A DNA stretch of 64,000 nucleotides from Verrucomicrobiales bacterium (lineage in GTDB: Bacteria; Verrucomicrobiota; Verrucomicrobiia; Verrucomicrobiales; DEV007): assembly GCA_048267005.1 (NCBI GenBank), contig JBLWYI010000013.1, forward strand, positions 118,455 to 182,454. Reading direction: 5' to 3'. This document shows, piece after piece, positions 5,966 through 64,000 of this stretch. Each line of letters starts with the position of its first letter. Within the stretch, counting starts at the first letter, position 1. The notes beneath the pieces are model-generated. The model was not told the origin of the DNA. It did no database searches and saw only the letters and a program-made list of their open reading frames with translations. The position numbers were made by a program, and so were the translations under genes.

Positions 5966-7969
5966 TTATTTTGTCTCCACAGGAGGCTCGCTTACGAGTT
6001 GAACAAACGCTTCGATGGTTCGTTCAGCCTGGGTGCCGTTGAAGACCAGGTAGCGGTCTTTGCCGTTCTCTTTGCCTTTGCGATTGGGGCGGAACAGGGT
6101 TGCGCCGTCGTCTTCCACAGTCACTAAACCCGGGGGCGACAAATCGAAATATCCCCGGTCCGGATAAACGGCGTGCAGCACTGCCGTGAGATCCCAGGTG
6201 GGGCGGTCATGCGGTTTGGTGGGGACGTAGGCGAGGTAGCCTTCCCGGATGATGTGTTTGGGATCGTATTGGTAGTCCTGTTGAATGCTTCCCCAGGGAT
6301 AGGCTGCGGCGATTCCGATCTCGTAGCCGCTCCAGATAATGGGAGTGGGCCAGGTCTTTGCGAACGACTGCGCTGACGGGACATCGAGGCGGACGTTGTA
6401 TTCCAGATGACGGGTGTCGAAGCGCACGGTCTGGAAAGCGCCGGCCATGATGATGAGTTCTTTCACCTTGGCTTTGGCAAGAGCCACGCCATCGAGGTCG
6501 GAGTGTTCGTCTGGCTCTGATTCAAGGAGCTGGGCGAGGTTGGTGAAGAATCCGACCTGCGCGATTTTAACCGACTGATCGGGCTGTGCCGCGAGGGTTT
6601 TGCGAAGCAGAGCCACGGCATCTGGGGCATCCTTGCCGCTCTTCAAATCGTGATCATAATTATCGGCAAGTCCGTTGTAGCGTCCGGGCTCGGGAGTGAC
6701 ACCGTTGCGAACGGCACCCACGGGGATGTCGGGCCGACCGTAATAGGTGTTCAGGGCATCGATGAAGGGGGCTGATTTCTCATGATCCTTGGTCGAGGTG
6801 ACTGCCAGTAGCTCGACCGCACCGCGGCGCTCGAGCTGGTGAATCAATGCCAGAGCCATGGCATCATCGATGTCATTCCCCATGTCGGTGTCGAAGATCA
6901 GTTTCACTGGTTTCTCCAGTTTCGGGGCTGCGGCGATGTGGGCTGGGGGCTGAGCCACGAGATGGACGAGGGCTTCCTGGACCCGTGCGGTTTGTCCCGG
7001 GGTCATGGTCAGGAAGCGGTCCCGTTTCTGTGCGGGCTCTTTGCCTCCCGGGCTGAATCGGGTAAAGCCATCGTCTTCTACGGTGACACGCCCCGTCTTG
7101 GAGAAACCGAAGTAGCCCCGCTGCGGGAATACAGCGTAAAGCACGCTGGTTAAGTCCCACGTCGGTCGGTCATGCTCGGGGCCGCTGTGGAGGAGGTAAG
7201 CTTCTTTAACGGGATGCTTTTCCACATAGTTGAAATCGTTCCTGATGCTGGCGCGCGGGTAGGGCGCAGCGATCCCGATCTCGAATCCGCTCCAGACGAC
7301 GGGAATCTCGTTCGGCCATTCCGCTGCGAGGATCTGCATCGACTGGACGTGATTGCGAACATTGGCTTCGAGGTAGCGGTTGTTGTCGTTGATGGTTTCA
7401 AGCGAACCGGCCATCACTGAAAGCTCTTTCACCTTTTGGCGAATGAGTGCAGGGCCGCCTTCTTCCTTGAGAAGGTCAGCGAGGTTGGTGGCCAGTCCGA
7501 CCTGGACGATGGTGACGGATCGATCTTCTGCGGCGGTCAGGGTTTTCTTCAACAGAGAGACGGCATCTTCCGCGTCTTCGTCTTTGAGGTCGTGCGGGAA
7601 TGAATCAGCCAGCTTCAGGTATTTAGAATCACGGTCAGGAGCATTGGGATTGGTCCCGACCGGGATATCGGGGCGTCCGTAAAAAGTGTTCACTGCATCC
7701 ACAAAGGGAGCAGCCTGCGGGTGCTTCTTGGAGACTGTGACGGCGAGCAGCTCGCACTTCCCCCGGTCGGCCAGAGTGTGCAGCATGGCCAGAGCGAGGA
7801 CGTCATCAACATCACCGGTGATATCGGTGTCGAAGATAATGGGGACGGGCTTTTCCTCCGCGTAGGCAGCGATACCGAGGAGACAGGAGAGAGACAGGGC
7901 GACCAAACGAACCAACAGGGTTGGTTTGGTGATCGAACAGGGTTGGTTCGTAAGGAGAGGGGGAGTCAT
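5966..7969 (-). CDS. Tandem-duplicated IUNH-fold protein (two nucleoside-hydrolase-like domains)
   Basis: Two DTD motifs ('IIFDTDITGDVDDVLALAMLH' and 'LIFDTDMGNDIDDAMALALIH'). ATG at 7969 overlaps the permease stop (tcat, ATGA coupling). An alternative TTG start near 7915 would give a clean signal peptide 'MVRLVALSLSCLLGIAAYA' and place the REP-like element outside the CDS. Confidence 0.85.
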   Translation of the reverse strand: MTPPLLTNQPCSITKPTLLVRLVALSLSCLLGIAAYAEEKPVPIIFDTDITGDVDDVLALAMLHTLADRGKCELLAVTVSKKHPQAAPFVDAVNTFYGRPDIPVGTNPNAPDRDSKYLKLADSFPHDLKDEDAEDAVSLLKKTLTAAEDRSVTIVQVGLATNLADLLKEEGGPALIRQKVKELSVMAGSLETINDNNRYLEANVRNHVQSMQILAAEWPNEIPVVWSGFEIGIAAPYPRASIRNDFNYVEKHPVKEAYLLHSGPEHDRPTWDLTSVLYAVFPQRGYFGFSKTGRVTVEDDGFTRFSPGGKEPAQKRDRFLTMTPGQTARVQEALVHLVAQPPAHIAAAPKLEKPVKLIFDTDMGNDIDDAMALALIHQLERRGAVELLAVTSTKDHEKSAPFIDALNTYYGRPDIPVGAVRNGVTPEPGRYNGLADNYDHDLKSGKDAPDAVALLRKTLAAQPDQSVKIAQVGFFTNLAQLLESEPDEHSDLDGVALAKAKVKELIIMAGAFQTVRFDTRHLEYNVRLDVPSAQSFAKTWPTPIIWSGYEIGIAAAYPWGSIQQDYQYDPKHIIREGYLAYVPTKPHDRPTWDLTAVLHAVYPDRGYFDLSPPGLVTVEDDGATLFRPNRKGKENGKDRYLVFNGTQAERTIEAFVQLVSEPPVETK
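7901..7955. repeat. REP-like short repeat, two direct copies of the 'AACAGGGTTGG' core
   Basis: 'cgaaccaacagggttggtttgg' and 'gatcgaacagggttggttcg'; same core recurs at 7 or more other loci in the window. Confidence 0.6.
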
Positions 7970-8928
7970 GATTTTTTCTGTTTCATCCGGCGGATTCGCC
8001 AAGCATCAAAGATTACAGCGATGATGATGACCAGACCGGTCACGAGGAGTTTGGTTGAGTTTTCTGCACCGATGTGGCCAAGGCCCGCTGCGAGTGTGGC
8101 CATGATGAGAACACCGAGGAAACTACCGATGACGGAGCCCCGCCCACCCATGAGACTTGTGCCACCGATGACAACGGCAGCGATGGCGTCGAGCTCCAGC
8201 ATGTTTCCAGCGCCGGGATTTGCCGAGGCGAACCGGCTGGCTTCGAATGACGCTCCCAGGCCAGCCAGGGCTCCGGCGATGATGAATACGACGATCTTGA
8301 TCGGTTGCGTGCTGATCCCGGAAAAGATGGCCGCTTCTTCATTGGCTCCGACGACTTTGGTGTAGCGACCGAAAACGGTTTTCGAAAGTAAGACCTGCCC
8401 CAACGCCACGATCAATACCGCGAAGAGGAATGCCGGGGAGATTCCAAGGTTCGTGATGGGAGCCGAGAGCCATTCAATTTCAGCTCCGATGTATTTGGTC
8501 TGGGAATCGGTGGTGCGTTGCGCCAGGCCGCGGGCGATTTGCATCATGCCAAGGGTGACGATGAAACTCGGGACCCCGAATTTAACAGAGACGAATCCGT
8601 TTCCCGCACCGCAAAGTGCGCCGGTGGCTACGGCGAGGAGAATGGCGGGGATAAACGGCCAGCTCCAGTCGACCATGGCAATCCCGAGGATGGATCCGCT
8701 GAATGCGAGGACTGAACCAACGGACAGATCGATTCCACCAGTCATGATGACCAGTGTCATCCCGACAGCAACCACCGCGAGGGCCGGGACGGAATTGGCG
8801 ACGGAGTTGAATGTCCCGGTTGAGATAAAAGAGCGGTCGACGAATCCAAAGACTGCCACGACAGCGATCAGCACGCCGAGAAGGCCGAGCGACTCACCAA
8901 ACCTCTGGAGCGTGGGGCTTTTGATCAT
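7966..8928 (-). CDS. ABC transporter permease (ribose/CUT2-type, RbsC-like)
   Basis: 320-aa polytopic membrane protein with a typical RbsC-family Gly/Ala-rich TM pattern; directly follows the substrate-binding protein gene. Confidence 0.85.
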   Translation of the reverse strand: MIKSPTLQRFGESLGLLGVLIAVVAVFGFVDRSFISTGTFNSVANSVPALAVVAVGMTLVIMTGGIDLSVGSVLAFSGSILGIAMVDWSWPFIPAILLAVATGALCGAGNGFVSVKFGVPSFIVTLGMMQIARGLAQRTTDSQTKYIGAEIEWLSAPITNLGISPAFLFAVLIVALGQVLLSKTVFGRYTKVVGANEEAAIFSGISTQPIKIVVFIIAGALAGLGASFEASRFASANPGAGNMLELDAIAAVVIGGTSLMGGRGSVIGSFLGVLIMATLAAGLGHIGAENSTKLLVTGLVIIIAVIFDAWRIRRMKQKKS

Positions 8929-8957
8929 CGGGGATTGTTTCGCCGGCTCGTGTTGTC

Positions 8958-9914
8958 TTAAAGGCTGTCTTTGGTGATGAGATCAACAGGAGTTTTCTGA
9001 TCAGCAGGGGTGTTTCCTTTGAGGATTTCCAATGCGGCTTCGATCCCGAACACTGCGAGGTCACCACCGTGTTGGTCAGCCGTTGCAAAGATGCGGCCCT
9101 CTTTGATGAGAGCTTGAACTGCGGAAATATTATCGAACCCGACGACCTTGACCTGATCTGATTTGCCAGCGGCTTTGATTGCTGACACTGCGCCAAGGGC
9201 CATGGAATCATTGCTGGCAAGGATGGCGGCGAGATCGGAGTGTTTCTGCAAGATCGCACTGGTGATCTGGTTGGCTTTATCCATTTCCCATTGCGCGCTC
9301 TGGGTCGATACGATTTCTGCTCCGGCGGCTTTCATGGCGTCTTCGAATCCAGCGCGTCGTTGCTGAGCATTGAACGCGGTGGGGACGCCCTCAAGGATGG
9401 CGACTTTTGCCCCGGCGGGGAGTTCTTTCGCGAGAGCTTCACCGACGATCCTGGCGCCTTCCCGGTTATCCGGACCGACGAAAGGGATCGTGGTCTCCGC
9501 TTGAGCCAGCACTTCCGCGTCGAGTTTGTTGTCGATGTTAATGACGGTGATTCCGGCTGCCCGGGCCCGCTTTAAAACGGTGATGAGAGCTTTGGAATCG
9601 GCTGGTGCGATGACGATGGCGTCGACTTTCTTTGCGATCATCTGCTCAACGAGAGCGACTTGCTGAGAGATGTCGGTCTCGTTCTTAATACCGTTTACGA
9701 TCAGTTTGTATTGTCCGGGGTGTGCTTTGGCGTGGGACTCTGCCCCGTCAGACATGGTTTTGAAGAACTCATTGGCGAGAGATTTCATGATCAGAGCGAC
9801 CTGAGGCGTCTCGTCTGCAGGTGCTGTCGCCGATTCATTGCCAGACCCGCAGGAAACGAGCGTAAGGGCGACAGCAGCGGCGGTCAGCTGTTGGAAAAGG
9901 CGTAAATAATTCAT
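8958..9914 (-). CDS. ABC transporter periplasmic sugar-binding lipoprotein (RbsB / PBP type I family)
   Basis: Lipobox 'LTLVSCGS'; periplasmic-binding-protein fold motifs ('KVDAIVIAP', 'GITVINID'). Confidence 0.85.
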   Translation of the reverse strand: MNYLRLFQQLTAAAVALTLVSCGSGNESATAPADETPQVALIMKSLANEFFKTMSDGAESHAKAHPGQYKLIVNGIKNETDISQQVALVEQMIAKKVDAIVIAPADSKALITVLKRARAAGITVINIDNKLDAEVLAQAETTIPFVGPDNREGARIVGEALAKELPAGAKVAILEGVPTAFNAQQRRAGFEDAMKAAGAEIVSTQSAQWEMDKANQITSAILQKHSDLAAILASNDSMALGAVSAIKAAGKSDQVKVVGFDNISAVQALIKEGRIFATADQHGGDLAVFGIEAALEILKGNTPADQKTPVDLITKDSL

Positions 9915-9930
9915 AGGTTACGTATTTGAA

Positions 9931-9958
9931 CAAACGATTGCGCAATATTGCGGTTTGG
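9931..9958. promoter_or_regulatory. Candidate LacI-family operator: palindrome 'caaac gattg CGCAATATTGCG gtttg'
   Basis: Perfect 12-bp palindrome 9941-9952 with inverted flanks, in the 45-bp gap between the lacI-family gene stop and the SBP gene start. Confidence 0.35.
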
Positions 9959-9959
9959 A

Positions 9960-10994
9960 TCAAGTTTTTTTGTTACGGGGTTGTGTCAGGACTGACCCAC
10001 GGTCGAGAAACTCGGTGGTGACTTCCACGATGAGTCCTTTGTTTTTACCCGGATCAGAAATTTCCTCAAAGGCGATGCGGAGGGCTTCGGTCGCCATTTT
10101 CCCGGTGTCTTGAACGACTGCACTGAGCGGGGTGGCGAGGACGGTGGCGTAGGGCTGGTCATCGAATGACACCAGCGAGATATCTTCGGGAATGCGAACA
10201 CCAGCCTGACCCAGAGCCTGAAGTGCGCCGAGGGCATTCACGTTTCCATAGGAGAAAATCGCGGTCGGGCGAGGGGATTGTTCGAGCAACTGCCGGGTCG
10301 AGTGGTAGCCGTCGGCGACTGAGAACTCGCTCCCTATTGACGTGCACTTCATGTTTCCGATACCGGCCTTGACCCCCCGGGTTCGTTCGAGGCTGGTCGA
10401 GGTACGCGGGTCGCCATGGAGGCACGCGATGTGGGAGTGGCCTTTGCTTTTGAGAACCGCTGCGACGTTTTTTGCCGCTTCAAAGTCAGTCGAAACCACG
10501 GATGGAGCTGAGAGATCAGGGAAATACCGGTCCACAAAGACCAATGGCAGAGCGCTTTTCACCAGATCCGCATAGACCGCGGAGTCATCGCTGACGGGGC
10601 AGGCGATGATGGCATCGACGCGGCGTTCCCGCATAACGTCTAAGGCACGTCTTTCCATTCCGGAGTTATCGCAATCGCAGAGGATCGTGACGTAACCTTT
10701 CTCCTGTGCGGCCCGTTCAACGGATCGGGCGATGGTGGCGAAGAAAGGGTTGGTAATATCGGGGAGCAACAGACCCAGGGTGAGGGTGCGCTTCATGCGC
10801 AAACTCCGGCCGGCAGGGTCGGGACGAACCCCGAACCGGGCCGCGGCATTGGTGATCTTTTCCTGAGTTGCCTTGCCAATTCGGTATTGATTTCCCTGAC
10901 CGCTGAGGGTTCGGGAGACGGTGGAGACAGAAGTGCCCAGATATGTGGCGAGTTCCTGAAGGTTGGATGGATTTGATGAACCTGAGTTCGCCAT
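9960..10994 (-). CDS. LacI family transcriptional regulator
   Basis: N-terminal HTH 'LATYLGTSVSTVSRTLSG' followed by a periplasmic-binding-protein-like effector domain. Confidence 0.9.
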   Translation of the reverse strand: MANSGSSNPSNLQELATYLGTSVSTVSRTLSGQGNQYRIGKATQEKITNAAARFGVRPDPAGRSLRMKRTLTLGLLLPDITNPFFATIARSVERAAQEKGYVTILCDCDNSGMERRALDVMRERRVDAIIACPVSDDSAVYADLVKSALPLVFVDRYFPDLSAPSVVSTDFEAAKNVAAVLKSKGHSHIACLHGDPRTSTSLERTRGVKAGIGNMKCTSIGSEFSVADGYHSTRQLLEQSPRPTAIFSYGNVNALGALQALGQAGVRIPEDISLVSFDDQPYATVLATPLSAVVQDTGKMATEALRIAFEEISDPGKNKGLIVEVTTEFLDRGSVLTQPRNKKT

Positions 10995-21989: not shown

Positions 21990-22032
21990 CGATCAGACCC
22001 TGTTCGTTCATCGGTCAGACCCTGTTGGATCG
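21990..22032. repeat. REP-like repeat, two copies in reverse orientation ('cagaccctgttcg', 'cagaccctgttggatcg')
   Basis: Lies between convergent sulfatase and DUF1501 genes. Confidence 0.6.
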
Positions 22033-25717: not shown

Positions 25718-26070
25718 GTGAATGGTCGTGACGGCAACCCGCTTCTGCTGCGGAAGAAGTGAATGGTCATGGTGGCAACTCGCTTCTGCTGCGGAAGAAG
25801 CGAATGGTCACGGTGGCAACTCGCTTCTGCTGCGGAAGAAGTGAATGGTCGTGGTGGCAACTCGCTTCTGCTGCGGAAGAAGCGAATGGTCATGGTGGCA
25901 ACTCGCTTCTGCTGCGGAAGAAGTGAATGGTCATGGTGGCAACTCGCTTCTGCTGCGGAAGAAGTGAATGGTCATGGTGGCAACTCGCTTCTGCTGCGGA
26001 AGAAGCGAATGGTCATGACGGCAACTCGCCTCTGCTGCGGAAGAAGTGAATGGTCATGATGGCAACTCGT
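25718..26070. repeat. Tandem array, 41-bp unit, ~8.6 contiguous copies ('gtgaatggtcatggtggcaactcgcttctgctgcggaagaa')
   Basis: Directly visible; units abut with no spacers, with a few point variants (c/t, a/g) between copies; sits in a divergent intergenic region. Confidence 0.95.
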
Positions 26071-30096: not shown

Positions 30097-30135
30097 GGAT
30101 CGACAGGGCAACAGGGTGTGATCGTAAAACGATCG
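30097..30135. repeat. REP-like repeat ('ggatcgacagggcaacagggtgtgatcg')
   Basis: Core CAACAGGGT in the short gap after the WD40 gene stop. Confidence 0.5.
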
Positions 30136-47428: not shown

Positions 47429-47860
47429 ATGCCAACAGATTTACGCAGCCTCACTTCCGAACAAGACACACACGACTTTGGTGCCGAAGTCGCAGTCGGC
47501 CTGAAATCTGGCAGCGTCATCGGGCTGATCGGTCAGCTTGGAGCCGGGAAAACCCACTTCACTCAGGGAATCGTTAATGCTCTAGGATCAGAGGAATCAG
47601 TCACCAGCCCGACTTTTACGCTGGTTAACGAATACCATGACGGTCGGCTTCCGGTCTTCCACTTTGACTTTTACCGGATGGATACCCGCGACGAAGTCCT
47701 CAAGATTGGGTGGGACGAATTCCTCGACGAGCCGGGTATCGTCATTGTCGAGTGGGCCGATAAATTTGCCGAATTGATGCCCGAAGAAACATCCTGGTTC
47801 ACATTCAAGATCCAACCGGACGGCACCCGAACGATCGAACAGGGTCTGTCCGACAAGTGA
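47429..47860 (+). CDS. tsaE: tRNA threonylcarbamoyladenosine biosynthesis protein TsaE
   Basis: ATG at 47429; P-loop 'GQLGAGKT' and 'SPTFTLVNEY' TsaE motifs. Confidence 0.9.
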   Translation: MPTDLRSLTSEQDTHDFGAEVAVGLKSGSVIGLIGQLGAGKTHFTQGIVNALGSEESVTSPTFTLVNEYHDGRLPVFHFDFYRMDTRDEVLKIGWDEFLDEPGIVIVEWADKFAELMPEETSWFTFKIQPDGTRTIEQGLSDK

Positions 47861-47874
47861 ACAGGGTTGGATCG
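47831..47874. repeat. REP-like repeat pair ('cgatcgaacagggtctg' + 'gaacagggttggatcg') spanning the tsaE stop codon
   Basis: First copy encodes the last residues of TsaE (..EQGLSDK*), second copy lies in the convergent intergenic gap. Confidence 0.65.
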
Positions 47875-52594: not shown

Positions 52595-52637
52595 CGATCC
52601 AACAGGGTCTGATCGACGAGGCAACCCTGTTGTCTCG
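52595..52637. repeat. REP-like repeat, inverted pair forming a hairpin ('ccaacagggtctg ... caaccctgttg')
   Basis: 8-bp perfect inverted cores separated by ~15 nt. Confidence 0.6.
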
Positions 52638-52727: not shown

Positions 52728-52990
52728 TGCGGGTCCGCACGAACGGTACCCTGCCGTCAGGACGTCCTGACGGGCAGGTACCACACGGATATGGGCAAAA
52801 GTGCGTCCTGACGGGCAGGTACCACACGGATATGGGCAAAAGTGCGCCCTGACGGGCATAAATCGCACGGACATGGGCAAAAGGACGTCCTGACGGTCAT
52901 AAATCGTACGGACATGAGCAAAAGGACGTCCTGACGGTCATAAATCGTACGGACATGAGCAAAAGGACGTCCTGACGGTGGGTGCCGTCC
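52728..52990. repeat. Tandem array, 41-bp unit, ~6 copies ('gacgggcaggtaccacacggatatgggcaaaagtgcgtcct'; later units diverged to 'gacggtcataaatcgtacggacatgagcaaaaggacgtcct')
   Basis: Contiguous units without spacers; first unit contains a GACGTC-centred palindrome. Confidence 0.9.
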
Positions 52991-57278: not shown

Positions 57279-59330
57279 TCACACCTGCCCCAGCAGATCA
57301 ACCAGGGCTACGATGCCCAGTAGTTTTTCATCTTCATCGATGATCAACGTTTTGCTGGCGCCGGCCCGAATCATCTGTTCGAGCATATCGGAAACCGGAG
57401 CTGTCGGCAGAGCCGTCGGCAGGGTAGCCAGCATGAGATCCTTGAGCTTGGTCTTTGCGCTGTAAGTGTCGCTCTTCAGGATATCATAAACGCTGCTTCG
57501 GCGTAGCACGCCGTCCAGCTTTCCGGTGTCGGGTTCCACCACTGGATAGGTGCTGTGGGGTTCATCGCGCAGTCTTTGCATGGCGTCAGCGAGTGTTTCA
57601 TCACCTGAGAGGGAACAGATCTCTGAGCACATCACGTCAGCAGCGGTCTTGCTGCGGCGATCGACCGGAACGCGCGCCACGACGGTATTGATTTCTTCGG
57701 ACGTGGCGTAGGCTTTTGCGGTGGTGGAGAATAGCTGCGAGATATCAGTGGAACCCGCCACCAGCTGTTTGAACACATTTTCACCCAGAGCGACCAGTGT
57801 GGACGCTTCGCTGGCGACTGCGTTGTATCGCCAGATGTGATCTTCCAAAAGCGCCCGCTCGCCGAAGTGATCACCTTCGTGGATGGTCCGCACGATGTTG
57901 CCTTCGTCGTCGGTGATGTTGATGGACCCCGCTTTCACGAAGTAAAACGAGAAGGCCGGTTCACCGCTCTGGAAGAGGACGTCTCCCGCTTCGAGGTGGG
58001 CTTCTTTCAGAGCTGATGTGTATTTCGGCGTCAGCAGGCTGATGTCTTTGGAGAAGAAAATATCGAGGGTCCATTCGGCCATCACCCGGATTTTACGATC
58101 GAGTCCCGGAAGTTTGCTGAGGTAAACCGAGCGCCACATCCACCAGGCGATAAAGCCTGAGAAGTTCATCCCGAAGGCGTGGGCGACGGCTTTGTTGTGA
58201 CCGATCGCGGCCATTTCACCGAGGCCTTTGAAGTCGAATGTCTTCAGCCCGCGGTCCGATGCCTGCAAAGTTGCCGCCATATTCGTTCCCGCTGTGGTGC
58301 CCTGCCGCTGGGCGAACTGGGCCGTAGGCGGGCAGAAGTCGTTGCCCTCTCCCGCGAATGGAACGGCGGCGCAATCGCCGGCGGCCCACACATTTTCAAA
58401 ATCATCACTGATGACGCGGAGAAAAGGATCGGTCACGACTTTTCCGTAGGCGCTTTCAAGCTCGTGCTGTGCGATCACCGATGTAATCAGCGGGTTCGGT
58501 GCGTTGCCCACGGTGGAAACCACGGTTGACGCGGGGAGCTTGGTGCCGTCGTCGAGAACGACCTGTCGGGCGGTGACGGATTTCACACGATGGTTCAGGA
58601 CAACATTAACACCCTGATCTTCGAGGCATTTTCGGGTGTATTCGCCGAGATTCGGGGCCAGCGTCGGCAGGAGCACCCCGCGACTGTGAATTAAGCTCAC
58701 GGTAAAATCATCGTGATCCACATTCCCGTAGAATTTGTGGACTTCGTTCAGCAAATCGATGATCTGGCCGGCCGTTTCCACCCCGGAGTATCCACCGCCG
58801 ACAATCACAAAGTTTAAGAGGAGACGTCGACGCGGTTTGTCCGAGATCAGGTTCGCCTCCTCGACCCGGCCGATAATGGTGGCGCGGAGTTTCATGGCGT
58901 CACCCACGTTCTGCATGAGATAGGCATGTTCCGCCATGCCGGGGATCCGGCTCAGATTCACAACCGATCCCGTTGCCAGCAGGAGATGCCTGCAATGGAA
59001 AGTGATGTCCGGCGAGAACGATCCCGCGGACGCCCGCAGCGTCCGGTTAGCCAGGTCGATTTCAGTGATGCTGCATTTGTAAACAAGCGCTCCTTTTGCC
59101 AGACGACGGATGGGATTGACCACATGCCTCGGGGCGAGCGATCCGCCGGCGACCTCCGGCAGCATGGGCTGAAATGTCATGTGGTTCTCATCAGCAATCA
59201 CCCCGACCCGCTTTCCCGAGGTGTGCTTCATCAATGCCTTGGCCGCGTAGACGCCGGCAAAGCCTCCGCCGATGATGGCACAGTCGAGATCGATTTTTTC
59301 GCGGTATTCTTTCGGGTTGGCGGTCGGCAT
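57279..59330 (-). CDS. NDH-2-like FAD/NAD(P)H oxidoreductase fused to a cyclic-nucleotide-binding domain and a CBS pair
   Basis: 'IIGGGFAGVYAAKAL' Rossmann; 'FQSGEPAFSFYFVKAGSI...GDHFGERALL' cNMP-binding; C-terminal CBS segments. Confidence 0.9.
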   Translation of the reverse strand: MPTANPKEYREKIDLDCAIIGGGFAGVYAAKALMKHTSGKRVGVIADENHMTFQPMLPEVAGGSLAPRHVVNPIRRLAKGALVYKCSITEIDLANRTLRASAGSFSPDITFHCRHLLLATGSVVNLSRIPGMAEHAYLMQNVGDAMKLRATIIGRVEEANLISDKPRRRLLLNFVIVGGGYSGVETAGQIIDLLNEVHKFYGNVDHDDFTVSLIHSRGVLLPTLAPNLGEYTRKCLEDQGVNVVLNHRVKSVTARQVVLDDGTKLPASTVVSTVGNAPNPLITSVIAQHELESAYGKVVTDPFLRVISDDFENVWAAGDCAAVPFAGEGNDFCPPTAQFAQRQGTTAGTNMAATLQASDRGLKTFDFKGLGEMAAIGHNKAVAHAFGMNFSGFIAWWMWRSVYLSKLPGLDRKIRVMAEWTLDIFFSKDISLLTPKYTSALKEAHLEAGDVLFQSGEPAFSFYFVKAGSINITDDEGNIVRTIHEGDHFGERALLEDHIWRYNAVASEASTLVALGENVFKQLVAGSTDISQLFSTTAKAYATSEEINTVVARVPVDRRSKTAADVMCSEICSLSGDETLADAMQRLRDEPHSTYPVVEPDTGKLDGVLRRSSVYDILKSDTYSAKTKLKDLMLATLPTALPTAPVSDMLEQMIRAGASKTLIIDEDEKLLGIVALVDLLGQV

Positions 59331-59474: not shown

Positions 59475-60878
59475 ATGGGGAGTCCAATTCGAAGGAGAAA
59501 CTTTATCAGCCGTTCCGCGCAGTTCGCAGCGGGAAGCCTTGCCGCCCGGACCGTGCAAACGGGATTCGCAGCCGGAGACAGCACACCTGATTATTACATC
59601 CCGGGGCAGCGGGGGTATGAAACGGCGCGGCGGCCTTTCAACACCGAGGTGGGATTGAAGCCCGGGGTGATTGCCGCCTGCGAGAACGATGCCCATGTGG
59701 TCACGGCCGTGAATCGGGCGAGGGCAGAAGGGCTGCCGATATCGGTTAAAAGCCGTGGCCACAGCTTCGAGGGATTTTCGCTGAACGAAGACGGGCTGGT
59801 GATTGAGCTGTCACGCCTTTCGCAACCTGTCCTGACGGCGGATCAGCGTTTCATTTCAGGGCCCGGCATCACCCTGGGGGATGTGTATGGTTTTCTCCTG
59901 CCCAAAGGACGACTGCTTCCGGCTGGCTCCTGCTCCGGCGTGGGGTTGGGCGGGCTGACTCTCGGTGGAGGCTATGGTCTCTTTGCCCGGCAGTTTGGAT
60001 TGACCTGTGATCTCCTGGAGCGGGTTCGCATGGTGGATGGCAGGGGGCAGGTTGTGGATTCCCGTGATGATCCCGATCTGCTGTGGGCCTGTCGCGGTGG
60101 TGGCAACGGCAATTTTGGAGCGATCACATCGATGGAGTTCAGAACGGTGGAAGCTCCACCAATGTTGTCTGCCCAACGGTTTAAGTCAGGAACGGTCTCG
60201 GTGGCCGAAGCCAATCGCAAAGCTGAGCTGTGGTTTGCCATGGCAAAAGAGTTGCCTGATGCGATTTTCTCCGGATTCATCGTGAACGGCAAAAACATCA
60301 CCGTCCTGATCACGTCGACCTACTCCCATTCCGGCCCGGCTTTTCAGCGGGCAGTCGCAGCGATGAAAGCGGCGGGATTCACCAGCAATGGTCCCTCTCA
60401 GACCGCGACCCAACAGGCCATCAAACGATACTACGGCGCGCAGTCCCCGCTTCCGTTTAGAAATTTCTGTGGGGGGATGGCTGACAGCTTCGCTGATTAT
60501 GCTCCGGCCATGCCGGCTGTGATGGAGGAAATACAGCGCTCGAATGTGATGATTCAGTTCAACACGCTGGGCGGTATGATCTCCCGGGCCGCCAGTGGTG
60601 CCTATCCGCATCGGAAGCGCCAATTTCTCTCGGAAGTTCAGGCCTACTGGAGCAAACCGGATCAGCGGGATGCGAAAGTGGCGGCGACACAACGTATCCG
60701 TGAACATTTGGCCCGGGTTGTCAGTGCTCATTACCGGAATTACCCGAGCATTGATTTCCCCAACTGGGAGGAGGCGTATTATGGGAAGAGTTACGCGAAG
60801 CTGCAGGAGTTGAAGCTTCGCTACGATCCCGAAAACCTGTTTCGTCATCCGCAAAGTGTCCGGCTCCCCGGGCAATAG
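59475..60878 (+). CDS. FAD-linked oxidase (berberine-bridge-enzyme-like), Tat-secreted
   Basis: 'RRNFISRSAQFAAGSLAA' Tat signal; C-terminal BBE motif 'YRNYPSIDFPNWEEAYYGKSYAKLQELKLRYDPENLF'. Confidence 0.9.
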   Translation: MGSPIRRRNFISRSAQFAAGSLAARTVQTGFAAGDSTPDYYIPGQRGYETARRPFNTEVGLKPGVIAACENDAHVVTAVNRARAEGLPISVKSRGHSFEGFSLNEDGLVIELSRLSQPVLTADQRFISGPGITLGDVYGFLLPKGRLLPAGSCSGVGLGGLTLGGGYGLFARQFGLTCDLLERVRMVDGRGQVVDSRDDPDLLWACRGGGNGNFGAITSMEFRTVEAPPMLSAQRFKSGTVSVAEANRKAELWFAMAKELPDAIFSGFIVNGKNITVLITSTYSHSGPAFQRAVAAMKAAGFTSNGPSQTATQQAIKRYYGAQSPLPFRNFCGGMADSFADYAPAMPAVMEEIQRSNVMIQFNTLGGMISRAASGAYPHRKRQFLSEVQAYWSKPDQRDAKVAATQRIREHLARVVSAHYRNYPSIDFPNWEEAYYGKSYAKLQELKLRYDPENLFRHPQSVRLPGQ

Positions 60879-60882
60879 ATTT

Positions 60883-62562
60883 ATGCCGCCATCGCTCCCG
60901 ACATCCAGTTCCGCCCGTCTCCATGATCTGGATGCGTTGCGGGCCTTTGCGATGTTGCTGGGCATTATTCTACACGCCGCCATCGCCTTCGTTCCGTTTC
61001 CCGGTTGGCTCGTGCAGGATGTGGAGAGACCGATGTGGAACACCCCTGAATTTCTCCACCAGCTGGGCCTCACCCTGCCGGAGACGTTCAGCCCGATGGC
61101 TCTGTTGCTCAACCTCATCCACGCCTTCCGGATGCAGTTGTTCTTTGTCGTGAGTGGATTCTTTGCGGCCATGCTCTGGAAAAAGCGCGGGCTGCGGGCA
61201 TTGCTCAAGCATCGCGCAAAACGCATCCTCCTGCCGCTCGTTCCGGCCACGATACTTATCTGGCCGCTCGTCGCACTCGCGGGGCTTATGGTGGCAGGGA
61301 CAAAGCCGGATTCTCTCTGGGTGGCGGCGAAGGAGGGGCGGATCGAGGTGGTGAAAGCGCAGCTTGAGGCAGGAGTCGACCCGAACGAACTCGATCCGTC
61401 AGCCGGTGTTTCGGCCCTGACCTGGTCGGCATGCGCCGGGCATCTGGAGGTCGCTGAATGGTTGATTGCCAGCGGAGCCGAGGTGGAACGGCGGGATCGG
61501 GACGGGGGAACACCTCTCCATGCCGCGGTGTTCTTCGCCCATCCAGAGGTGGTCAACTTGCTGGTGGCGAATGGCGCTGACGTACAGGTCAAGAATCAGC
61601 GGGGCGAATCGGCCCTTGATGTGGTTGAGGCTGACTACGGAACCACAAAATTCATTGGCAGGCTGATCGGGGTTCCTGTCAAAGAAGAGGCAGCCTTCGC
61701 TGATAGCCGTGAGCAAATAGGAAAACGCTTGGGGAAACTCGAAGGGGAAGTTGAGAGCGATTCAACGTGGGAGATTTGGAAGATGATTCTCGGTGTCTAC
61801 ATGGCAGCGGCGATGGCTCCGGTCTTTCTGCACCTGTGGTTTCTGCACTATCTCTTTTGGCTTGTCCTGTTGTTTGCCTTCGCGGCCTGGAGGTATGAAA
61901 AATCGGGCCGCAAATTTCGTCCCCGGATTGCCTGGTTGATTCCATTGGCGGTTATTCCGCAGCTGTTCATGGTCCTGGATTTTGGTCCCGACACCGCTCC
62001 GGGATTGATCCTGTGGCTGCCCAAGCTTGCCTACTACGCGGTGTTCTTCGGAGTCGGGGCCCTGTTTTATGGGCGGCCGGATTTTGGTGAGAAGCTCAAG
62101 CTTCGATGGCCTGTGCTCTTTGCCGTGGCTCTGCCGGTCGGCTGCATCGCCCTGTATTTCAATTTCCTGAGAGACGTGACCTTTGAAGCCGGCTTTGATG
62201 AGAATCAGGTGCCGGTATTTGGCTTTCACATCATCTATTGCATCGGCGCGGTGGCATTCGCCTGGCTTATGGTCTTCGGGATGATTGGAGTCTTCCGCCG
62301 GTTTTTTCCCGCAGAAGACCCGCGGATTCGCTACATTTCAGACGCGAGCTACTGGCTCTACATCGCGCATTTGCCGCTGCTGTTTTTCATCCAAATCGCC
62401 ATGACCGGCTGGGAGTTTCCCGCGCTGTTGAAACTGTTGATCGCCTGCGTTGCCACGATTGGAATTCTCCTTCTCGCCTACGAGTGGTTCGTTCGATACA
62501 CTTTTATCGGCACATTGCTGAATGGGAAAAAAGTGAAGCCGTCACGAACCAACAGGGTCTGA
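60883..62562 (+). CDS. Acyltransferase family 3 (OafA-like) membrane protein with internal ankyrin-repeat insert
   Basis: 'LDALRAFAMLLGIILHAAIAF' AT3 N-terminus; ankyrin repeats ('GGTPLHAAVFFAHPEVVNLLVANGADV'); ATG at 60883 just after the upstream stop. Confidence 0.85.
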   Translation: MPPSLPTSSSARLHDLDALRAFAMLLGIILHAAIAFVPFPGWLVQDVERPMWNTPEFLHQLGLTLPETFSPMALLLNLIHAFRMQLFFVVSGFFAAMLWKKRGLRALLKHRAKRILLPLVPATILIWPLVALAGLMVAGTKPDSLWVAAKEGRIEVVKAQLEAGVDPNELDPSAGVSALTWSACAGHLEVAEWLIASGAEVERRDRDGGTPLHAAVFFAHPEVVNLLVANGADVQVKNQRGESALDVVEADYGTTKFIGRLIGVPVKEEAAFADSREQIGKRLGKLEGEVESDSTWEIWKMILGVYMAAAMAPVFLHLWFLHYLFWLVLLFAFAAWRYEKSGRKFRPRIAWLIPLAVIPQLFMVLDFGPDTAPGLILWLPKLAYYAVFFGVGALFYGRPDFGEKLKLRWPVLFAVALPVGCIALYFNFLRDVTFEAGFDENQVPVFGFHIIYCIGAVAFAWLMVFGMIGVFRRFFPAEDPRIRYISDASYWLYIAHLPLLFFIQIAMTGWEFPALLKLLIACVATIGILLLAYEWFVRYTFIGTLLNGKKVKPSRTNRV

Positions 62563-62587
62563 CCGGTGAGGCAACAGGGTTGGATCG
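62543..62587. repeat. REP-like repeat pair ('cgaaccaacagggtctgaccg' + 'gaggcaacagggttggatcg') spanning the acyltransferase stop codon
   Basis: Same two-unit arrangement as at the tsaE 3' end. Confidence 0.65.
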
Positions 62588-62597
62588 TATAATACCA

Positions 62598-63002
62598 CTA
62601 AGACTTAGTGATAATTTCATCGGCCAGTTTATCGGTGATCCCTTCTCGAGCGTCCACCCACTTCAGGCTTTTAATTTCATCAGGGATGTCACAATCATGA
62701 AGGAGAATGGGAACAACTCTGGCCAAAGTATTCATAGGGTCGTTGAATAAATGTAACCATACCTCGAAATTAGCCCATTTTGATTCTACAAAAGAAGGGG
62801 ATAGTAAAATGAGAGCCCGTCGCGAATTCTTCATTCCTGCAACAACTTCTATTCCAATATTTGCCCCATAATTTAGATCGTCGTCAAACCAGCACGGACG
62901 ACCTTTGGATGTGAAAATATCTCGAAGTAGTTTTGCTTCAATCTTGTCGTCCGAAGAATGGGAGAGAAAGAAGCTAAATTGGTATTTGTCGATTTTGCTC
63001 AT
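62598..63002 (-). CDS. Minimal TIR-domain protein (134 aa)
   Basis: 'FSFFLSHSSDD' beta-A motif, 'ALILLSPSFVESKWANFEVW' with Glu in the catalytic-Glu position; ATG overlaps the upstream gene stop (ATGA); region GC ~40%. Confidence 0.85.
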   Translation of the reverse strand: MSKIDKYQFSFFLSHSSDDKIEAKLLRDIFTSKGRPCWFDDDLNYGANIGIEVVAGMKNSRRALILLSPSFVESKWANFEVWLHLFNDPMNTLARVVPILLHDCDIPDEIKSLKWVDAREGITDKLADEIITKS

Positions 63003-63574
63003 GCTGCTTTCGCCAATGACATCGAAAGTTCTTTCCCCCGATCAGTCAGTTCAAATAGCTTTTCTTTGTGGCCCGCTTTCTCAATATTGCTTTCAACAAA
63101 GCAGCCTTGGCTAATTAAGGAATTTACTTGCGCCGTCGCGTTTGTAGATGAAGCGCCATATTCGCTTTTTAGCCGAACCGTGAGAATTGACGTGCGTAGG
63201 TATACTTCAGGCACTTCCAACTCTTGCAGCCACCCCATCAGAAGAAGCTTATCTTTGAATTGATTTAACCTGTGAATCGCATCTTTGGCACTGTATTCAA
63301 CAGACCCGTTTCGCTTAATTCGCTTCCGTTTAAATTGGTGCAAAACAAGCCGTCTAAGGTGTCGAGGGCTCACTTCCAAGAGTTCGCTCAAGAGACCAAG
63401 CGATATCCGATCAAGGGGTTCCTCGTCCGCTAAATGAATGAAATTTGGAAGATAGTAATCATCTTCAAGTCCAATTTCGATAAGGATTTCCTGCATTGCA
63501 AGGTCACGCTGCTCTCCCTTAATCTGCAAAAACGTATTCAACGCTTGCAAATAGTTATTCGTTTCGGGCCCCAT
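62999..63574 (-). CDS. HTH/winged-helix domain protein (191 aa), translationally coupled partner of the TIR gene
   Basis: HTH-like 'LGLLSELLEVSPRHLRRLV' and C-terminal winged-helix-like 'AQVNSLISQGCFVESNIEKAGHKEKLFELTDRGKEL'; low GC. Confidence 0.75.
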   Translation of the reverse strand: MGPETNNYLQALNTFLQIKGEQRDLAMQEILIEIGLEDDYYLPNFIHLADEEPLDRISLGLLSELLEVSPRHLRRLVLHQFKRKRIKRNGSVEYSAKDAIHRLNQFKDKLLLMGWLQELEVPEVYLRTSILTVRLKSEYGASSTNATAQVNSLISQGCFVESNIEKAGHKEKLFELTDRGKELSMSLAKAA

Positions 63575-63861
63575 TTAGGGGGCAATTTAGCAAGCGGCAC
63601 ATAAAACTCAATGAAAATCGGACTGAAATTAGTGCAATTTGCAAAATACAGCTGATTTCTTCTGTTCGCAAGCGGTATTTTGGATTTATTAACTAAATCG
63701 TTTAGTTGGAATTCTGTTTTGCCATGAAATGGTTTAGGACGAATTAACATTTGGTCGGTCGTAATCATTGTTGTGCTGAAAACCTCGGTGAGCGTTTTCT
63801 GGGAAATCACATGAATGGCCGCTTCATTACTAATTTTGCCCCTTGTTCGACCAAACGGCAA
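63538..63861 (-). CDS. Hypothetical small Lys-rich protein, possible third gene of the low-GC islet
   Basis: 107-aa ORF in AT-rich DNA (where random ORFs are rarer); TTG start or an internal ATG; overlaps the partner-gene start by 37 nt out of frame. Confidence 0.25.
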   Translation of the reverse strand: MPFGRTRGKISNEAAIHVISQKTLTEVFSTTMITTDQMLIRPKPFHGKTEFQLNDLVNKSKIPLANRRNQLYFANCTNFSPIFIEFYVPLAKLPPKWGPKRITICKR

Positions 63862-63868
63862 GAGGAGC

Positions 63869-64000
63869 GACCTTCCGAACGTTCAGACACGGGGTTGTGA
63901 AAAACGTACGACCTTCCGAATGCTCAGACACGGGGTTGTGAAAAACAAACGACCTTCCGAACGTTCAGATACGAGGTTGTGAAAAACAAATGACCTTCCG
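63869..64000. repeat. Tandem array, 41-bp unit, at least 3.2 copies, truncated by window end ('gaccttccgaacgttcagacacggggttgtgaaaaacgtac')
   Basis: Contiguous units with point variants; runs to the last base of the window. Confidence 0.9.

Follow-up and report, generated by a model that had tools for sequence, protein, structure and literature searches.

The stretch analysed here, a window of 64,000 nucleotides from a Verrucomicrobiales bacterium (assembly GCA_048267005.1, contig JBLWYI010000013.1, positions 118,455 to 182,454 of the forward strand), contains close to its end a low-GC islet of 1,280 bp (62588–63867) with two small genes on the minus strand: one for a 134-residue protein that is a bare TIR domain (62598–63002) and, directly upstream, one for a 191-residue orphan protein of two domains (62999–63574), referred to below as the partner. 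Apart from these genes, the islet comprises only an AT-rich leader of 293 bp; neither an integrase nor a tRNA or terminal repeats were found within the islet. The islet was delimited by its GC profile, by the GC content at third codon positions (GC3) and by host-type repeats at both ends. Between positions 62600 and 63900, the GC content was 0.40–0.44, compared with 0.52–0.65 in the preceding 6 kb and 0.539 in the entire window; thus, the low GC content of about 40% given in an initial annotation, made from the sequence alone, was reproduced, although the 57% that it assigned to the genome was slightly high. GC3 was 0.45 in the partner gene and 0.41 in the TIR gene, versus 0.65–0.69 in three neighbouring host genes. 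This composition is a clear sign of recent foreign origin, and the GC3 contrast with the host genes supports the horizontal acquisition that the initial annotation had proposed.

The TIR protein is of the AbTir/BtTir-like TIR_2 type, predicted to be an enzyme that cleaves nicotinamide adenine dinucleotide (NAD+). The Pfam TIR_2 model matched residues 11–123 of the 134 (6.6e-18, 65.8 bits for a cutoff of 28), and PF01582 (TIR) was also above its cutoff (37 bits vs. 21.3), the protein being a TIR domain without extension. The motifs FLSHSSDD and SKWANFEVW, pointed out before, are present at residues 12 and 74, respectively, and the second aligned with KDWTNYELD of AbTir, with W76 and E80 placed on W204 and E208. 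The codons of this WxxxE motif lie at 62763–62777 of the minus strand (W76 at 62775–62777, E80 at 62763–62765), and both residues are invariant in the three TIRs of the family described below. The nearest solved structures were 7uxr, followed by AbTir (7uwg and 7uxu) and 8g83, with values from 1.8e-9 to 8.6e-8, all of them bacterial NADase TIRs, and the best non-bacterial matches were the TIRs of TLR1 and TLR6. In AbTir, the mutation E208A abolishes activity, the Trp of WxxxE is tied to the formation of cyclic ADP-ribose (cADPR) isomers, and the bare TIR domain produced in Escherichia coli lowers NAD+, the cells having been grown at 18 °C to mitigate toxicity (PMC10641520). The TIR of the window is complete and catalytically equipped and is predicted to act as an NADase, with the catalytic Glu where it had been placed at first sight. 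When the TIR was searched with tblastn against plasmids and phages, only distant multi-domain TIR proteins were retrieved.

The partner, on the other side of the pair, showed no match to Pfam, NCBIfam or PADLOC models (PADLOC-DB v2.0.0, 2023), even at E = 10, and only marginal, short matches to PHROGs. As already reported for it, no SIR2, SLOG, Macro, cyclase, STING or transmembrane module was detected. A word-indexed search of 5.8 billion cluster sequences returned the partner itself as the sole match, and an exhaustive phmmer search of 1.84 billion representatives (about 15 billion proteins) revealed two relatives: P0003, with 46% identity (9.3e-35), and P0004, which matches the C-terminal half only (8.3e-4). 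No further members were obtained with a profile of the three sequences, nor in back-translated pattern scans of genome contigs, JGI metagenome contigs and viral contigs; the partner, the TIR and the alignment of the partner sequences, used as queries in word-indexed searches, gave none beyond P0003 and P0004, and tblastn of the partner against plasmids and phages gave zero matches.

AlphaFold2 (AF2) applied to the single partner sequence produced a useless model (predicted local distance difference test, pLDDT, of 41), and the best model obtained with the three-sequence alignment reached a pLDDT of 76.9. In this model, a helical N-terminal domain (residues 1–95, 63290–63574, minus strand; helices at residues 3–16, 20–33, 56–66 and 70–82), acidic in composition (isoelectric point, pI, of about 5.2–5.6), is followed by a C-terminal winged helix-turn-helix with a terminal helix, of the PadR/MarR/F-93 type (residues 106–190, 63005–63259, minus strand) and with the order H-H-H-β-β-H. 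A fold search of BFVD gave generic winged-helix matches only, and a sequence profile of the partner against the PDB gave only spurious coiled-coil matches. The two domains differ in conservation: identity to P0003 and P0004 is 36% and 14% in the N-terminal domain and 52% and 37% in the winged helix, respectively. The latter is conserved in step with the TIR (37–52% vs. 33–58%), whose identity to the TIRs accompanying P0003 and P0004 is 58% and 33%, respectively, and divergence is fast in the N-terminal domain. The invariant positions are concentrated in helix 2 (LRTS..RLK), in the recognition helix (N-x-TA-x-x-NSL) and in the wing (EK-x-F..T..G). The segment LSELLEVSPRHLRRLV, at partner residue 62 (residues 62–77), had been presented as a classic helix-turn-helix. 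It is present as quoted and does form a helix-turn-helix in the model, but it belongs to the N-terminal domain, which is poorly conserved, and neither homologue has its basic residues; therefore, it is not the conserved DNA-reading element, and this part of the proposal has to be corrected. Its other part, a winged-helix-like segment at the C-terminus, agrees with the model, in which the conserved module of DNA-binding type is the predicted C-terminal winged helix.

The two open reading frames (62999–63574 and 62598–63002) overlap by the four nucleotides at 62999–63002 (tcat on the plus strand), so that the coding strand reads ...GCAGC-ATGA-GC and the TGA of the partner overlaps the ATG of the TIR gene, as initially annotated. 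This overlap suggests translational coupling, by which both proteins would be made together, as is the case in complex-forming proteins. The two homologues of the partner came from one ENA metagenome, in contigs of 64% GC overall, and both are encoded directly upstream of a small TIR gene, so that the pair is found in three of three loci with the window. In locus L001, the gene for P0003 (8105–8692) is followed by a TIR gene of 132 codons (8697–9095), with a 4-nt spacer or an 11-nt overlap at the junction, and in locus L002, the gene for P0004 (10001–10537) is followed by one of 129 codons (10539–10928), with a 1-nt spacer; both junctions are comparable in tightness to the ATGA overlap. Co-conservation with a TIR gene, which had been set as a check on the pairing, was thus found in both homologous loci, an outcome in favour of the pair. 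In each of the three loci, the dip in GC content comprises a leader of about 290 bp and the two genes only.

The genes around the pair differ among the three loci and are all of housekeeping type. In the window, they encode an NDH-2-like oxidoreductase, a BBE-type oxidase, an acyltransferase-ankyrin protein and a pair of extracytoplasmic function (ECF) sigma and anti-sigma factors, and PSCyt2/DUF1549 was also found; in L001, they correspond to a PhoD-like gene and an RsgA-like GTPase, with DUF1501 also present, and in L002, to secreted proteins and lipoproteins. PSCyt2/DUF1549 and DUF1501 belong to families known to be expanded in planctomycetes, and their presence suggests planctomycete-like hosts. 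No conservation of the flanking DNA was detected among the three loci, and the defence-island setting assumed earlier does not hold for any of them; neither paralogues nor obvious defence genes were found in the nearest 15 kb. The pair is kept in three of three loci with differing neighbours and with a composition of its own; therefore, it is a real, mobile and extremely rare two-gene unit. Two candidates for a third component were discarded: a 378-residue P-loop protein encoded after the TIR gene of L001, which is RsgA-like, of host GC content and absent from the other loci, and a 107-residue open reading frame in the leader, without family match and not conserved. Conserved terminal repeats or att-like sites were also searched for at the ends of the islet, and none were found.

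The leader (63575–63867, minus strand; GC 0.40) is the presumed promoter and operator region. It includes a near-palindrome, TGCAATTTGCAA / TTGCAAAATACA, at 63633–63650, an inverted repeat with arms at 63642–63653 and 63671–63682, and ATTTAG/CTAAAT hexamers at 63693–63698 and 63585–63590. No hexamer other than ATTTAG/CTAAAT had two or more copies in all three leaders, and any such hexamer appeared in 3.3% of Markov-1 resamples. In addition, both the window and L002 have palindromes 40–110 nt ahead of the start codon, which are not homologous to each other. Together with the palindromes, the hexamer may be taken as a weak lead to an operator. No sigma-70 consensus, terminator, riboswitch, non-coding RNA or Rfam match was detected in the islet. 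Of the three loci, L002 has the clearest operator-like feature (9904–9961), made up of AAATTTAGTT repeated in tandem and an inverted repeat with perfect arms of 8 nt, GATTTATC(N9)GATAAATC, about 40–60 nt upstream of the partner start.

Comparison with known systems agreed with the initial claim that the pairing is unlike the described TIR systems, and full-text searches retrieved no description of a TIR paired with an antitoxin, winged-helix or repressor partner of this kind. By sequence, the TIR is closest to AbTir/BtTir and PDC-S66, which was also its best PADLOC match (3.5e-14) and shares the WxxxE motif with it; however, those are single proteins of about 270–290 residues with an N-terminal region of about 140 residues, whereas the TIR of the window covers only positions 145–240 of the 282 in the PDC-S66 model, short of its full length. 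For comparison, a true PDC-S66 member encoded in a B. cereus plasmid matched positions 1–281 at 6.9e-96. The partner is unrelated to this N-terminal region (hhalign probability of 0.2%). Thoeris also has a small TIR gene beside a second gene, and weak PADLOC ThsB matches were obtained (6.8e-6 to 0.07), but no ThsA was found, the partner and the neighbours lack SIR2, SLOG, Macro and transmembrane modules in the three loci, and the score of the Pfam ThsB_TIR model on the TIR (13.2 bits) was under its cutoff of 21.2. SPARTA, the short prokaryotic Argonaute (pAgo) with TIR-APAZ, resembles the pair in having a nucleic-acid-binding partner, here predicted, beside a TIR, and its NADase depends on assembly (PMC9097488); in contrast, no Argonaute MID-PIWI and no APAZ are present in the islet, the TIR is unfused and the partner has just 191 residues. 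No cyclase, SAVED/STING, reverse transcriptase or pAgo/APAZ of the kind found in CBASS, Pycsar, retron and SPARTA systems was detected in the islet or its flanks, and the corresponding matches were at the TIR level only (SAVED_TIR, 0.0025; Retron_TIR, 33 bits vs. a cutoff of 600).

Partial parallels were also found outside these systems. SpbK of ICEBs1 is, like the predicted product of the islet, a TIR NADase on a mobile element, and acts by abortive infection (PMC12847820), but it is larger and triggered directly by a phage protein, and the PADLOC spbK model gave 0.043 here. The CapW/BrxR and CapS repressors are winged-helix proteins whose genes directly precede an immune gene that kills the cell (PMC13373217); unlike the partner, an orphan associated only with this TIR and without WYL, they form broad families across many systems and have WYL or kinase-controlled modules. 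The nearest functional precedent is that of the RES-Xre pairs (NatR-NatT and the MbcA-MbcT-like NAD+ toxins), in which a helix-turn-helix antitoxin is paired with an NAD+-degrading toxin (PMC9503650; PMC11535050). The likeness extends to the small bicistronic operon, often mobile, with the protein of DNA-binding type encoded upstream of the NAD+-consuming enzyme (PMC9503650; PMC11535050). The toxin fold is, however, TIR here and not RES/ART, the partner has no HTH_3, HTH_31 or Xre match, and its neutralising role is only proposed.

In bacteria, plants and animals alike, immunity relies centrally on TIR enzymes, and large sensor domains attached to the TIR are the usual explanation of how it is kept silent until required; bare TIR domains of the AbTir type cleave NAD+ upon self-association. 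With 134 residues, the TIR of the window is too short to include a sensing or auto-inhibitory domain, and bare TIRs of this type are active when expressed; therefore, a restraint in trans would be needed, for which the co-translated partner is the only conserved candidate. Our preferred reading, to which we give somewhat less than an even chance, is that the islet is a self-contained, horizontally mobile operon that functions in the manner of a type II toxin–antitoxin pair or an abortive-infection system, with the partner as the negative controller. The winged helix of the partner probably binds the AT-rich leader, holding the expression of the operon low, and the partner, whose synthesis parallels that of the TIR, probably binds the latter as well and blocks its assembly. 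Loss or titration of the partner upon host shut-off by a phage, its degradation or the loss of the element would then free the TIR, which would oligomerise and lead to the arrest or death of the cell through NAD+ depletion or cADPR-type products. NADase activity, toxicity, repression, neutralisation by the partner and the trigger are all parts of this scheme that we infer. The two small genes, which overlap by 4 nt with that of the DNA-binding-type protein first, and their mobility as a foreign cassette fit a type II toxin–antitoxin or abortive-infection design, and the architecture found is that by which type II toxin–antitoxin pairs are recognised, with small, adjacent, co-directional genes of overlapping stop and start that move as a unit.

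Several observations weigh against this toxin–antitoxin-like reading. The winged-helix domain is not basic (pI of 5.2–8.1), which is unusual for a dedicated DNA binder, and no convincing shared operator was found in the three leaders, whose common 10- to 14-mers were no better than those of shuffled sequences and whose hexamer has a p value of about 0.03. The tail by which classical type II antitoxins bind the toxin is usually disordered, whereas both domains of the partner are predicted to be folded. The model of the partner itself rests on three sequences, with the other four of its five versions at pLDDT 42–67, and three family members are too few for an analysis of co-evolution. In addition, the searched literature describes no TIR as a type II toxin.

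The same two genes can also be read in other ways. TIR NADases are generally switched on by induced assembly, as occurs in short pAgo/TIR-APAZ on target binding (PMC9097488), and the partner might correspondingly, in line with the first option of the initial annotation, be an activating sensor or scaffold: partner and TIR would form an inert complex, the winged helix would bind invading nucleic acid with little sequence specificity, and side-by-side loading would trigger NAD+ cleavage, in a SPARTA-like manner without Argonaute. This would explain why the recognition helix is nearly invariant, yet no clear operator is common to the three leaders; the tight translational coupling suggests a stoichiometric complex, and the fast-evolving N-terminal domain could be an arms-race surface. 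However, a bare AbTir-type TIR is already active alone (PMC10641520), and how the cell tolerates it would be left unexplained, a neutral to acidic winged-helix domain is poorly suited to non-specific DNA binding, and no nuclease, helicase or other module able to discriminate nucleic acids is present. We consider this arrangement unlikely, though it is the main rival of the reading that we prefer. Stated as the more general proposal that the partner is a minimal invader sensor, which nucleates active TIR assembly either by loading bare TIRs on foreign nucleic acid or by recognising a phage protein through its variable N-terminal domain, the idea likewise has a small but appreciable chance of being correct. 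It is rather improbable that the partner is autoregulatory only and makes no contact with the TIR protein, which would then be the entire working system and either deplete NAD+ directly, sensing infection by itself, or make a signal for an effector encoded elsewhere. The generic PadR/MarR-type repressor fold predicted for the partner is consistent with such a role, as are the winged-helix repressors that precede diverse immune operons, e.g., CapS (PMC13373217), and the weak matches of PADLOC ThsB-type models to the TIRs (6.8e-6 in the window and as low as 1e-9 in L001). Nevertheless, a generic regulator would not be expected as an orphan family restricted to one TIR clade in three of three cases, a TIR of this size could not accommodate a sensor, a ThsA-like or other effector adjoins the pair in none of the loci, and neither paralogues nor obvious defence genes were detected in the nearest 15 kb.

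A Thoeris-like circuit, in which the TIR would make a cADPR-type nucleotide and the partner would be a ligand-controlled transcription factor that reprograms transcription in the place of an effector, appears very unlikely to us. W76, whose counterpart in AbTir is linked to cADPR-isomer formation (PMC10641520), is kept, and a sensor followed by a winged helix is a layout that resembles one-component regulators; against this, the N-terminal domain is a small, all-helical bundle unlike the domains that bind ADPR or cADPR (SLOG, Macro, Nudix, WYL), its identity of 14–36% is too variable for a conserved ligand pocket, and a killing or arrest effector is not evident. Finally, the pair could have no role in conflict with phages, either as a selfish addiction cassette or with the TIR, under a local regulator, serving as a protein-interaction scaffold or taking part in nucleotide chemistry of another kind. 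The lack of a surrounding defence island at the three loci points in this direction, and TIR domains do also serve as scaffolds, the best non-bacterial matches being those of TLR1/TLR6; however, the invariance of the catalytic WxxxE, the bacterial NADases found as nearest solved relatives, and the mobility and foreign composition typical of conflict genes make it distinctly improbable.

On the sequence comparisons presented here, the pair would be a conflict module in which a TIR NADase is accompanied by a novel partner acting in trans; it matches no described system and is a credible candidate for a new toxin–antitoxin-like or anti-phage module. As the TIR is stripped to the bare domain, all of its control has to be provided by a single small partner, not seen before, making the pair a compact model for the trans-regulation of TIR assembly. 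If the partner is an antitoxin, as in the toxin–antitoxin-like reading that we prefer, this would be the first type II toxin–antitoxin module with a TIR toxin according to the searched literature, and if it is an activator, a minimal sensor–TIR immune pair. Were the partner a sensor of invaders, no smaller two-part immune system of a sensor and a TIR would be known; the pair would be an analogue of SPARTA that lacks Argonaute and the bacterial equivalent of TIR filaments templated by nucleic acids. Its significance is limited by its rarity, with three members, in GC-rich genomes.

On the TIR side, the host sequence adjoining the islet is a doublet of a dispersed host repeat, with two copies of CAACAGGGTYKGAYCG 22 nt apart (62550–62587, plus strand), which overlaps the stop codon at the end of the acyltransferase-ankyrin gene and finishes 10 nt short of the TIR stop codon. 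This 16-mer has 11 copies in the window versus 0.37 expected, arranged as doublets 22 nt apart at four places (7913, 21990, 47837 and 62550), an inverted pair at 52600 and a single copy at 30109, and the six loci align into a consensus of about 48 nt built of two 22-nt units. The element had been described as REP-like (repetitive extragenic palindromic); it is a genuine dispersed repeat, but its hairpin is not significant (z = −0.5) and no inverted repeat was found. The spans occupied by the repeat are 7913–7950, 21990–22027, 30109–30124, 47837–47874, 52600–52632 and 62550–62587, and at least three copies lie at or just past the 3′ end of a gene.

The second boundary is marked by the 41-bp tandem array noticed at the outset, which is real (63868–64000, plus strand; at least 3.2 copies with 90% matches by Tandem Repeats Finder) and runs past the end of the window. 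It was considered as a part of the module and rejected, as two more arrays of the same period exist elsewhere in the window and none beside the L001 and L002 modules; it is a host genome feature. Three intergenic arrays have an identical 41-bp period, at 25718–26069 (8.6 copies), 52759–52978 (5.4 copies) and from 63868 to at least 64000 (at least 3.2 copies), their units being no more alike than shuffled sequences, and a perfect palindrome of about 29 nt, CCTGCCGTCAGGACGTCCTGACGGGCAGG, is found at the start of the second of them (52745–52775).

Two of the neighbouring host genes encode products that combine several domains. The gene at 60856–62562 (plus strand) codes for a 568-residue membrane acyltransferase (Acyl_transf_3) with an ankyrin block inserted after about 185 residues, an unusual combination. 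In addition, the gene at 57279–59330 (minus strand) codes for a 683-residue pyridine-nucleotide-disulphide oxidoreductase of the NDH-2 type to which a cyclic-nucleotide-binding domain and a CBS pair are fused, and this suggests a nucleotide-regulated respiratory dehydrogenase.

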